Assembly: GCA_965279515.1 (NCBI GenBank)
Contig: CBDIID010000003.1
Span: 3,040,001-3,104,000 of the forward strand
Reading direction: 5' to 3'
DNA from: Turneriella sp.
GTDB taxonomy: Bacteria; Spirochaetota; Leptospiria; Turneriellales; Turneriellaceae
DNA length: 64,000 bases
Positions 3,394 to 14,447 of this stretch are shown piece by piece (the first letter of the stretch is position 1; each line of letters starts with the position of its first letter). The notes beneath the pieces were generated by a model. It was not told the DNA's origin, did no database searches, and saw only the letters and a list, made by a program, of their open reading frames with translations. The position numbers and the translations under genes were made by a program.

Positions 3394-3774
3394 TTATTTC
3401 GCTGCGACGGTGATTGTCTTTTTGGCGCTTGCCTTGCGTGGCAGGTTCACCTTGAGCACGCCGTTCGCAATTTCAGCATTGATTGCCTCTGCGTCGACGT
3501 CTTCGCTGACGCGGAACGCGCGCTCATAGCTTGCGCGGCGGAATTCGCGGTGGATCTGCTGCTCTGTTTTTTGTTCAGAGGCAGATTGCGCTGTCGCCTT
3601 GAGTGTCACGATACCGTTTTCAAAGGTAACGTTGACATTCTCTTTGTTCGCACCCGGAACGTCTGCGTAGATGGTGTATCCCGCTTCGGTTTCAGTGATA
3701 TCGACTGCCGGAAGGTAGGTGACACCATTTGCCACCGGGCCTTTCTCCGATGTTTTCTTTTCTAATCCAAACAT
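3394..3774 (-). CDS. Hsp20/alpha-crystallin small heat shock protein
   Basis: PAVDITE, ADVPG, NGVLKVNLP; GGGGAG RBS. Confidence 0.92.
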   Translation of the reverse strand: MFGLEKKTSEKGPVANGVTYLPAVDITETEAGYTIYADVPGANKENVNVTFENGIVTLKATAQSASEQKTEQQIHREFRRASYERAFRVSEDVDAEAINAEIANGVLKVNLPRKASAKKTITVAAK

Positions 3775-3784
3775 AGTCTCCCCC

Positions 3785-4198
3785 TTATTTTGCAACAATC
3801 TCGATTTTGCGCGGCTTCGCCTCTGCGGCTTTGGGCAGCGTGACGGTCAGAATGCCGTCTTTGACTTCAGCGTTGACGCTGTCGCCACTGAGCGGGTGCT
3901 TAAAGCTGATGACGCGCTCAAATTTGCCGGAGGCACGCTCTTCGCGGCCATACTCTGCCTGATCGCGCTTGTTTTCACCGCGGATCGTCAGCTTGCGACC
4001 TTCGAGTTCGACAGTGACGTCTTCTTTCGCGAGGCCCGGAACGCGGGCTTCGATGACATAGGCGTCGTCGTTTTCGGCGATATTGACCGCCGGATAGTAG
4101 CCGCTCATACCGTTGGCAAAACTCCAGCGGAAGATGCGGTCGAATTCATTTTGGACCCCTGCGAGGTCGCTCCAGATAGAATGTGCTTTCACTAACAT
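3785..4198 (-). CDS. Hsp20/alpha-crystallin small heat shock protein
   Basis: YPAVNIAE, ARVPG, ERASGKFER, DGILTVTLPK; AGGAGG RBS. Confidence 0.92.
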   Translation of the reverse strand: MLVKAHSIWSDLAGVQNEFDRIFRWSFANGMSGYYPAVNIAENDDAYVIEARVPGLAKEDVTVELEGRKLTIRGENKRDQAEYGREERASGKFERVISFKHPLSGDSVNAEVKDGILTVTLPKAAEAKPRKIEIVAK

Positions 4199-4242
4199 TT
4201 TCCCTCCTAAAGGCCATTTCTGGCGTTTGTCTTTATTGACTG

Positions 4243-4296
4243 ATAGCACTCTATCAATCACAGTGCTAGTATAATTAAGAGTGTCGTGCCCGGCAA
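4243..4296 (-). promoter_or_regulatory. CIRCE (HrcA operator) overlapping a sigma70 promoter of the hsp20 operon
   Basis: ATAGCACTC-N9-CAGTGCTAG (4243-4269) versus consensus TTAGCACTC-N9-GAGTGCTAA; minus strand TTGCCG-17-TATACT (4296-4268). Confidence 0.85.
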
Positions 4297-6541: not shown

Positions 6542-6697
6542 GTAAATCTCCTCGGCTGCAGATTTGTGAATTTCAGCCTGAAATCGCACAGTAGGCAATA
6601 AAGGGCCTTGCGACGATAATTTTACCATTTAGTTACGAATCACTGCCCTCCATAATCAATTTCTATGCCCATTGCATGGGAACAATTTTTGAAAAGC

Positions 6698-6725
6698 TTG
6701 ACGCGCATTCCGACGACCATATCCT
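6698..6725 (+). promoter_or_regulatory. putative sigma70 promoter for the ncRNA-slipin locus
   Basis: TTGACG-16-TATCCT, predicting a start near 6732, just before the 5' strand of the closing helix. Confidence 0.55.
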
Positions 6726-6733
6726 TCACCGCC

Positions 6734-7065
6734 GGTGCGGTAATCCTGCGGCGTCGAAACGCCGGGCGGTACCCCTGACGTGTCTTCGGGTATTCTGCGG
6801 AGCATCGTAGCGGCACCAAACTCTTGGGGTAGCGGGTTCGATTCCCGCCCGCAGCAATGCGTGTAGCTCACCGGCAGAGCACAAGACGGAAACCCGAAAG
6901 GGGAGCAAGTTCGACTCTTGCAACGGGCTGTGAACCTGATTTGTGGAGGGTGTCCGTCCCTAACCGGGCACGGCAGTGAGCCTGCCTAAAAAAGTTCGTC
7001 CGGACAAAGGGGCCGGCCCCTCGGGGCACCTGAAAGCTGGCTTTGTAAGTGGTGGATACCGCACC
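6734..7065 (+). ncRNA. structured ncRNA containing a circularly permuted (YrlA-like) tRNA-mimic domain and a second T-arm
   Basis: ends pair (GGTGCGGTA 6734-6742 / TACCGCACC 7057-7065); T-arm GCGGG-TTCGATT-CCCGC; GCAA-capped acceptor stem; D-arm GCTC-ACCGGCA-GAGC; second T-arm GCAAG-TTCGACT-CTTGC. Confidence 0.75.
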
Positions 7066-7173
7066 TGTTAAGTAGCGTCAGCTTCGGCCCGCGTTACAGC
7101 GCAGATGCTTAAGCGCACTTCCGCTGGTCGTATGTGGCTCCTTTGCCTGGATCAGATTATTTTGTGGGGAAAT

Positions 7174-8277
7174 ATGGCTGTAACGATTGAGCAAGACGAA
7201 GTTGGAATTTATTTCCGCGATGGCATCTATAAAAAATTTCTGCTGCCGGGCAAACATACGCTCCCGTTTTTCGGCAAAAAGCTCGTCGAGCTGCATAAGG
7301 TCGCGCAGGAATTCAAGTCATCCAAGAATCTCGAAATTCTTGTCAAAGATGAAAAGCTGGCGAAGCTGCTCGACATTGTCGACGTCGCCGACCACCAGAT
7401 AGCGCTGTATTTTGCCGACGGGCATTTTCAGAAAATACTCAAACCGGGTAAGACAGCATTCTGGAATATGTTGCGCAAAAATACCTTCGAGGTTATCGAT
7501 TTTTCGAAACCCGATATTCCCGCCGAAATTCATCCCTCTATTCTCGCGCATGCAGAGACGGTAGCACACCTGCAGACTGTGAGCGTCGCTTCGTTCCAGA
7601 AGGCGTTGCTGTTCTTCAACGGTAAGTTCGAGCGTGTATTGGAGCCGGGAAAATATTATTTCTGGAATGGGCCGACCAAGGTCACTGCCGAACTCGTCGA
7701 CCTGCGGCAGCAGCAGCTCGACATGACGGGCCAGGAAATCATGACGCAGGATAAGGTGACGCTGCGGCTGAATTTTATCTGTCTTTACCGCATCATCGAT
7801 CCGCTGACAGTTTTTCAAAATATCAAGGAATATGAAAAGCAGCTCTACATTCAATTGCAGCTGATCTTGCGCGAGTATGTCGGCATGCTGAAGCTCGACG
7901 AGCTTCTTGAGAAGAAAGAAGAAGTCGGGCAGTTCATTCTGGAAAAACTTAAGAAGAACGCCGGCGGCTGGGGTATTGAATTTATCGGCGCCGGCGTGAA
8001 AGATGTCATCTTACCAGGTGAGATCAAAGATATTCTCAACAAAGTCATCGAAGCGGAAAAGCGTGCGCAGGCCAATGTCATCACACGCCGCGAAGAGACT
8101 GCCTCGACGCGTAGCCTGCTGAATACCGTAAAACTCATGGAAGATAACCCGCTGCTTATCAAACTCAAGGAATGGGAGCAGATTGAAACCGTTGCGGCGA
8201 AAATAGGCAGCATCTCCGTTTCGAGTGGTGCCGATATTTTGCAGCAGCTGGGTAAGATACTGACTCCCGAAAAGTGA
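7174..8277 (+). CDS. slipin family SPFH/band-7 protein
   Basis: three N-terminal repeats (..LYF.DG.F.K.L.PGK), QEIMTQDKVTLRLN, KDVILPGE, RREETASTRSLLNT. Confidence 0.88.
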   Translation: MAVTIEQDEVGIYFRDGIYKKFLLPGKHTLPFFGKKLVELHKVAQEFKSSKNLEILVKDEKLAKLLDIVDVADHQIALYFADGHFQKILKPGKTAFWNMLRKNTFEVIDFSKPDIPAEIHPSILAHAETVAHLQTVSVASFQKALLFFNGKFERVLEPGKYYFWNGPTKVTAELVDLRQQQLDMTGQEIMTQDKVTLRLNFICLYRIIDPLTVFQNIKEYEKQLYIQLQLILREYVGMLKLDELLEKKEEVGQFILEKLKKNAGGWGIEFIGAGVKDVILPGEIKDILNKVIEAEKRAQANVITRREETASTRSLLNTVKLMEDNPLLIKLKEWEQIETVAAKIGSISVSSGADILQQLGKILTPEK

Positions 8278-13805: not shown

Positions 13806-13905
13806 CCGCAATGCGCGGAAAGCAGCAGAGCAACTTGCCGCGCAAGTTGCGGAGCGCTTTAGCAGCAGTTCGCCCCGCGAACTGCGAGGCTTTCCGTGCA
13901 TGCGG
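13806..13905. repeat. multi-branched palindromic element between rpmH and rnpA
   Basis: outer stem CCGC(A)ATGCGCGGAAAGC / GCTTTCCGTGCATGCGG enclosing hairpins GCAACTTGC-CGC-GCAAGTTGC and GCAGTTCGC-CCC-GCGAACTGC. Confidence 0.7.
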
Positions 13906-14447
13906 ATAACTTTCAACAGTCAGCTAAAATCAAAAAAGCCCGCGCTCAGTATTTCCTCAGTCTTAAATCCAAAAAAAGCATCGGGTCGCTGTTTAAAACC
14001 GGCGGCAAAGTCTTCGCCAAAAAGTTAATGCTGCGTTTTAACCGCAGCGACTTGCGCACACAGGCAGATCCCCCCTTTCATGTCGTGTTCGCCGTTTCGG
14101 CCAAGCTCGGCGATGCCCATGTGCGCAACCGCATCAAGCGCCGCCTGCGCGAGGCGTTGCACGAGATCATGAAAAGCGGTGCGGTGAAACAGGTGGGTTT
14201 TGACCTCGCGATTATTCCGAAAAAAGAAACGGCGGATGCAGACTTCGGCGACCTGTGCGCCGACCTGAAAATGGCGCTGCAGCGTTTGCCGAAGCACAAG
14301 GAGGTGCCAGGTGCGTCCGCCGCCACGGATGGCGTTCTTCGCGGCGCACCAAAGCACAAGGATGTGCCAGGTGCGTCCGCCGCCACGGATGGCGCTCTTC
14401 GCGGCGCACCAAAGCACAAGGATGTGCAAGGCCCCGTCAAAACATGA
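13896..14447 (+). CDS. rnpA: ribonuclease P protein component with repeat-derived C-terminal extension
   Basis: RNR motif VSAKLGDAHVRNRIKRRLRE; rpmH-rnpA-yidD order; start uncertain. Confidence 0.9.
   Translation: MHADNFQQSAKIKKARAQYFLSLKSKKSIGSLFKTGGKVFAKKLMLRFNRSDLRTQADPPFHVVFAVSAKLGDAHVRNRIKRRLREALHEIMKSGAVKQVGFDLAIIPKKETADADFGDLCADLKMALQRLPKHKEVPGASAATDGVLRGAPKHKDVPGASAATDGALRGAPKHKDVQGPVKT
14289..14427 (+). repeat. 60-bp tandem repeat (about 2.3 copies) in the 3' end of rnpA
   Basis: unit AAGCACAAGGATGTGCCAGGTGCGTCCGCCGCCACGGATGGCG(C/T)TCTTCGCGGCGCACCA encoding PKHKDVPGASAATDGALRGA. Confidence 0.92.

Follow-up and report, generated by a model that had tools for sequence, protein, structure and literature searches.

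A three-domain structured RNA of about 400 nt with a permuted tRNA-like middle directly upstream of a slipin gene in the spirochaete Turneriella sp.

What kind of RNA stands in front of the slipin gene of a Turneriella spirochaete, and what could the pair do together? The window analysed here is the whole stretch of 64,000 nucleotides at positions 3,040,001 to 3,104,000 (forward strand) of contig CBDIID010000003.1, assembly GCA_965279515.1, from a genome that is 99.99% complete; its slipin gene, which encodes a Band-7/SPFH protein of 367 aa, occupies 7174..8277 on the + strand. A first-pass annotation of this DNA had proposed a tRNA-mimic non-coding RNA of ~330 nt upstream of the gene. Comparison with relatives indicates a structured RNA of ~400 nt (~6731-7131), directly 5' of the slipin gene and built of three covarying domains (I-III), whose invariant core is formed by the two flanking domains, for which there is no Rfam family, and not by the tRNA look-alike between them.

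The folding energy of the RNA is ordinary (z = -0.12, not above chance), no Rfam family reaches gathering level in the window, ARAGORN reports 0 tRNA genes and the Rfam tRNA model scores 15.4 bits against a threshold of 29, so the case rests on comparison. Covariation upstream of slipin homologs, named in the first-pass annotation together with the Rfam and ARAGORN runs as a way to check its proposal, was found in all three domains. Slipin relatives were drawn from 55 genome loci, 75 metagenome loci and a phylum search (19/401 genomes); 134 loci whose start was intact and whose upstream stretch reached 450 nt or more were kept, and 87 remained after removal of near-duplicates, spanning Spirochaetota, Bacillota, Planctomycetota and others, with gut clostridia over-represented. 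Because kin are not independent, shuffle counts overstate the support, and slid controls carry more weight.

Domain III (7033..7131, + strand) is a long hairpin comprising an outer helix, G7040-C7041/G7123-C7124, a UUUGU/CC loop, a 7-bp helix (7047-7053/7113-7120) and an inner part (7054..7112, + strand), where the internal loop GGAUACC (7054-7060) stands opposite UUAA (7109-7112), G7061 pairs with C7108 and an inner hairpin spans 7062-7107. Across loci the spacing of its two conserved internal loops is held at 7-8 bp, and the inner insert varies from 40 to 142 nt. A motif of the GGATACCG type could be anchored in 66/87 loci, and in 62 of these 66 a second, downstream anchor was placed by sequence alone; between the anchors of these 62 loci, which belong to several phyla, 83% was paired in register and 36-41% when slid. 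An alignment of 28 sequences, picked for similar insert length and consisting of 4 from the genus and 24 mostly clostridial ones, had 85.6% of cells paired, with 22/25 pairs changing on both sides (0/500 shuffles; slid controls 38-41%). Relaxed anchors, applied to the 25 loci without domain III, revealed it in 8, left 4 doubtful and gave nothing in 13. Searched alone against Rfam, domain III drew two chance matches only. A T-box likeness of the GGATACCG stretch was dropped: the stretch lies in a two-sided loop and has no Rfam T-box match. In clostridial loci (e.g., L136, L022 and L028) the insert also holds another conserved hairpin, marked by TCCGC, ~30 nt 3' of GATACCG.

At the 5' end, domain I (6731..6818, + strand) forms a three-way junction of P1 (6731-6746/6797-6814), P2 (6749-6764, the CGGCGT-CGAA-ACGCCG hairpin that had been read from the sequence at the outset) and P3 (6768-6774/6788-6796, with a 2-nt bulge), followed by an unpaired ACCA (6815-6818). 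All four genus sequences (4/4) carry it at 86-88 nt with paired ends and the unpaired ACCA, and P2 is present in most loci. For P3, 94.8% of cells were paired in 41 sequences, with 36 double-sided changes, 0/500 shuffles and slid controls at 14-68%; these sequences were selected by hand or through a motif score, a choice biased in favour of the motif, and the MAFFT alignment put the four genus rows in the wrong place. In an in-register count across 53 loci the P3 pairs hold, genus included. For P1, own pairing amounts to -17.3 kcal/mol versus -11.6 kcal/mol for cross pairing, and it ranks in the top decile in 31/52 loci (two controls, 7/52 and 11/52). The ACCA is like an acceptor end, and cleavage there is a putative step. 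A short P3 model was too weak to serve as a search tool (best E 0.11), and a candidate pseudoknot of the P3 strands with the 3' motif showed no covariation and was superseded by domain III.

These domains also bear on where the RNA ends. It had been described as a unit of ~330 nt closed at 7065 by a helix of 6734-6746 with 7054-7065; that helix pairs at 12/12 positions here and at 7/12, 5/12 and 5/12 in three genus relatives, and by cross-pairing it places 5/53 loci in the top decile versus 5/52 and 5/53 in controls. Each strand of this helix covaries with a different partner; the helix excludes P1 and domain III, and in a hairpin with two internal loops GGATACC becomes one side of an internal loop rather than the end of a closing stem. 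The conserved structure runs on to ~7131. In this genome, the closing helix and domain III are computed to be equal in energy (-146.8 and -146.6 kcal/mol), and a local alternative fold is possible; no conserved switch between the two was found.

The likeness to tRNA resides in the middle. The core of domain II (6822..6886, + strand) is a circularly permuted tRNA elbow, in which a closing helix (6822-6826/6882-6886) encloses a T arm (6832-6848), a sealed acceptor hairpin (6849-6863) and a D arm (6866-6880), with no anticodon arm in this permuted domain. The order is the permuted one of YrlA, whose model (RF02553) matches 6821-6888 over model positions 20-89 of 114 with 33.3 bits (E 2.6e-5; gathering score 69). 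An alignment of 13 loci, selected because their D arm is clear, had 98.8% of cells paired and changes on both sides of all 4 acceptor pairs (0/500 shuffles). The description as a tRNA mimic is supported for a YrlA-like tRNA domain. This part takes up ~65 nt of the ~400, and the bases that vary least are found elsewhere, in domains I and III.

A relic without function, left by an integration site or by a tRNA array that collapsed, could look similar at first sight: a T-then-D order is natural at a tandem tRNA gene junction, and an ordinary folding energy with no tRNA called by ARAGORN would be expected. The acceptor hairpin, however, covaries at 4/4 pairs, and domains I and III, which do not derive from tRNA, show covariation in several phyla; covariation in the alignments largely refutes this reading, to which we attach next to no weight. 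An ordinary YrlA Y RNA acting with Ro60 is scarcely tenable either. It would account for the sub-threshold match and for the shared permuted T arm-acceptor hairpin-D arm with tRNA-like T and D loops, but YrlA is defined at 80-130 nt in the accessible part of PMC4201824, so that the present RNA is 3-4 times the length of a Y RNA. The Ro60-binding motif GNCGAAN0-1G, which belongs near the 5' end, is not conserved; only the P2 loop comes close to it, but without the terminal G and with a different sequence in three genus relatives. Nor is there a Ro60/TROVE gene within ~4 kb: the first-pass annotation had noted that neither Ro60 nor RtcB lies nearby, and the observation extends to the whole genome, which gave no match to TROVE (PF05731; control positive in 2/14). 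TROVE was also absent from ten related slipin-bearing genomes, namely 5/5 tested from elsewhere in the class and 5/5 less complete ones.

The rest of domain II (6893..7029, + strand) is its variable part, and the middle domain as a whole is what varies in the RNA across loci. It carries the CCC-GAAA-GGG hairpin (6893-6902), a second T arm (6905-6921) and hairpins at 6950-6971, 6972-6986, 6994-7005 and 7016-7027. The GAAA hairpin and both T-loop hairpins had been seen from the outset and are all present; a longer-range TGTCCG/CGGACA pairing proposed with them gives way to the first three of the local hairpins, which fit the family sequences better in alignment and folds. L001 has lost the second T arm, which L002, L082 and L161 retain, and in L290 and L083 the matching stretch has a D arm and an anticodon-type arm. 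This part is probably a worn second tRNA-like module, and hairpin 6950-6971 may be a worn version of the D/anticodon-type arms of L290, L083 and L076. A tally of 36/53 loci for anticodon arms is inflated by T arms and is disregarded. Many clostridia have a T arm and a worn D arm in the middle domain, and four planctomycete loci have an intact tRNA upstream. In L290 (1190-1620), L083 and L076 the middle domain retains an anticodon-type arm 3' of the D arm, with two modules in L290; in L296 (~1200-1530) at least four T arm-acceptor hairpin-D arm modules form a chain, followed by domain III and slipin.

Such arms, together with the elbow itself and the RtcB neighbours of clostridial loci, would suit a decoy that draws off anticodon nucleases or further toxins that attack tRNA, one of the functions first suggested for this RNA. 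The permuted domain here has no canonical anticodon arm, however, its acceptor end is sealed, the invariant bases lie in domains I and III, and the genome offers no ligase to mend a cut decoy; we regard this role as improbable.

The RNA is tightly linked to the gene next door. In the searches made, the RNA always lies on the same strand as slipin and 5' of it, never away from the gene. Within the family, the two occur together in 5/20 genomes, the fifth with its slipin cut by a contig end, and 15/20 have neither. A model of domain III alone, which is low in sensitivity (it missed 4/5 genomes in one set and most long-insert forms in another), found matches in 6/121 class genomes and in 6/121 genomes around G444, and 6/6 new genomes have slipin directly downstream. 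No further copy of the RNA exists elsewhere in the present genome, where domain III is single-copy, and among viral contigs 0 of 119 pattern matches had a T-loop or a 3' core nearby (450 nt or less), so that no free-standing copy was found. The link is not strict in reverse: L006 and L066 hold slipin relatives (51-53% identity) without a T-loop, D-loop or domain III motif in the 800 nt upstream, and thus without a recognisable RNA. Separately, L281-L284 are viral-collection contigs with slipin relatives, L281 and L283 having a tRNA-like stretch upstream and L281 also a GGATACCG motif; they may be host DNA flanking proviruses.

A constant place before the gene is also what a cis-acting leader would show. 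The RNA would then control the message of slipin (and of rtcB where present), either through slipin binding to domain III near the ribosome-binding site, as autoregulation, or through processing, either in the tRNA elbow or next to ACCA, and free RNA would be a released leader. Domain III ends 38-65 nt 5' of the start codon in 35/50 loci, the ATG at 7174 follows position 7065 by 108 nt across a gap with no terminator-like site, as the first-pass annotation had it, and in this genome the alternative helix equals domain III in predicted energy. Yet that helix is not conserved, no shared helix covers the ribosome-binding site when the final 150 nt of 10 loci are folded, and in 10/50 loci the start codon is as far as 100-199 nt away. 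At ~400 nt with three domains, the RNA is also large for a leader. We consider a purely cis-acting leader, the main rival of an RNA-slipin particle, possible though rather unlikely; leader control is also compatible with such a particle.

The nearest described system includes RtcB. According to the accessible part of the 2018 preprint 10.1101/312249, Burroughs and Aravind predicted in 2016 that a Band-7-associated RNA, b7a-tRNA, stands beside Band-7 genes in RtcB operons and that YrlA is occasionally adjacent to Band-7, a prediction unvalidated as of that preprint. An undescribed class, as first suggested, is therefore a description with a reservation: no Rfam family reaches threshold, but YrlA or tRNA-like RNAs beside Band-7 had been foreseen. 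The present locus shares with that system a tRNA-like RNA directly adjoining a Band-7 gene, and its relatives sit with RtcB, RlaP and WYL-type genes. It differs in lacking RtcB, in the permuted ~65-nt extent of its tRNA-like part, which shows none of the strong likeness to authentic tRNA expected of b7a-tRNA, and in domains I and III, which the accessible part of 10.1101/312249 does not mention; the 2016 original may say more. No description of these two domains was found in the literature searched, which largely excluded subscription papers and the motif tables of RNA-discovery supplements; PMC7790460, PMC7159879, PMC2258279 and 10.1101/2023.11.10.566534 hold, in their accessible parts, nothing bearing on this locus.

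The accessible part of PMC10272220 reports a slipin gene co-regulated with rtcB. In the Turneriella genome neither RtcB (PF01139; control positive in 10/14; no tblastn match with two RtcB relatives as queries) nor RlaP, a PF09414 RNA ligase or the WYL proteins of relatives gave a match. Elsewhere in the class, 7/10 slipin-bearing genomes, all 99% complete and several with bases withheld, have no RtcB match. RtcB does occur in 19 of the 64 loci whose downstream sequence extends for 1200 nt or more; genes of WYL type occur in 25/87 (weak WCX matches). The module thus persists without RtcB and Ro60, its partners in the RNA's first prediction. In genus g10, the 3/20 genomes with slipin (G044, G287, G317) are also those with RtcB, but the two genes are on different contigs.

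Transcription is likely to start from a putative sigma-70-type promoter at 6698..6725 (+ strand), with TTGACG (6698-6703), a 16-nt spacer and TATCCT (6720-6725), and with a start expected near 6731. The promoter noted earlier is indeed present, with a match at 9/12 positions, and its TTGACG lies at a fixed distance in 4/4 genus sequences; the -10 box is not kept, and a promoter scan is weak (4 sites versus 2.0 +/- 1.4 expected, not above chance alone). Just 5' of it, at 6660-6682 (+ strand), a terminator-like hairpin with a T-rich tail would insulate the 5' end of the RNA. Four of ten listed sequencing runs were compared, all as contigs: three from RNA libraries of three studies and a fourth that is probably DNA. 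At 98-99% identity, the RNA-library contigs cover 6741-6974 and 6945-7126 (X1), 6824-7071 (X3) and 6738-6924 (X4), and the probable DNA run covers 6740-6930. Contigs of two studies (from 6738 and 6741) break off 10 nt or less from the predicted start and show no loose end, which hints weakly at a 5' end; the libraries may contain DNA. Eight substitutions, placed on the proposed fold, comprise two that keep a pair (6771, 6848), three in loops (6960, 7020, 7046) and three in linkers. No contig of close identity covers the coding region; the contigs cannot rank parts of the locus and were not used for this.

The partner protein is itself unusual for its family. PF01145 matches residues 143-308 (E 6.5e-34; 117.9 bits against a cut-off of 23.6), and the predicted layout is three beta-repeats (~1-45, 64-110 and 131-178), an SPFH core and a long helix. 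The repeats are tandem copies by hhalign (probability 98.5-99.0), and the first SPFH subdomain appears triplicated. No transmembrane helix was found by hydropathy, a measure of membrane-spanning segments, the highest 19-residue value being 1.16 (0.88-1.67 over 30 members). The structure model (pLDDT 79.6) aligns end to end, loosely, with residues 322-719 of major vault protein (rmsd 6-10; 10-11% identity). A wide fold search weighs residues beyond 134 and barely covers 1-134. Matches of the repeats to Vault repeat clusters in an atlas (0.83-0.86) are a lead only; a sequence match to the HflK N-terminal subdomain is weak (E 0.6), that to archaeal stomatin strong (E 2e-21), and no Pfam vault family is among the 25 families listed for 30 slipin members.

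On this model, slipin shares with major vault protein the layout of beta-rich repeats, SPFH domain and long helix with no membrane anchor, and, by implication, a non-coding RNA partner. It differs in having 3 repeats rather than 9 and 367 rather than ~800 aa, in a sequence nearer stomatin, in lacking a TROVE partner and in an assembly that is presumed from its family. From stomatin, HflK/C and QmcA, with which it shares the SPFH core and helix (PF01145), it is set apart by the missing transmembrane helix, the apparent triplication and the RNA gene in front. The available part of PMC13100048 (2026) describes the vault layout, calls the repeats unique to the vault and gives other SPFH proteins as membrane-anchored, a rule that the predicted slipin layout breaks; full-length bacterial vault homologues, as far as the accessible part of 10.1101/872010 goes, form a different group. 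A vault-like slipin with RNA was not described in the literature searched, outside which most subscription papers and supplements lie.

These features are best explained by an RNA-slipin particle that would serve translation stress, a reading with putative RNA binding for which we see an even chance. RNA and slipin would be transcribed together from one promoter, and the first ~400 nt of the transcript fold into the three domains, as covariation shows. Anchorless slipin would oligomerise, as SPFH proteins do, into a soluble ring or half-cage, with three beta-repeats modelled in place of the membrane anchor as in the vault protein. It may bind domains I and III at their invariant parts, where two loops a fixed 7-8 bp apart are like a protein-docking surface, and the exchangeable middle domain would offer its tRNA elbow or elbows to ribosomes or to enzymes that handle tRNA under translation stress, with RtcB as an optional client and not a core part. 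In a bolder form, which remains tentative and rather doubtful, the module would be a widespread bacterial mini-vault, in which anchorless slipin with three vault-like repeats builds a soluble cage around the ~400-nt RNA, and the RNA presents tRNA elbows to ribosomes that have stalled or to tRNAs that are damaged, without Ro60 or RtcB. The locus in any case defines a large structured RNA class, with exact bases for mutation. If an RNA-containing cage is real, the long-open function of vault-type particles would become testable with a two-gene bacterial module; a mini-vault would add a tractable genetic model and possibly an evolutionary way-station from membrane SPFH cages to the eukaryotic vault.

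Some features of the surroundings deserve mention. Two genus relatives have an HSP20 gene immediately 5' of the RNA (L001:718-1347; L002:2869-3333), and two open reading frames (ORFs) 2.5 kb upstream in the window (3394-4261) are presumably small heat-shock-like genes. A DUF1295 gene follows slipin on its 3' side both here and in L002. Farther downstream, the ORF at 13896-14447 (+ strand), a putative RNase P protein gene, has a C-terminal tail derived from a 60-bp tandem repeat (14292-14431; 2.3 copies, 96% alike).
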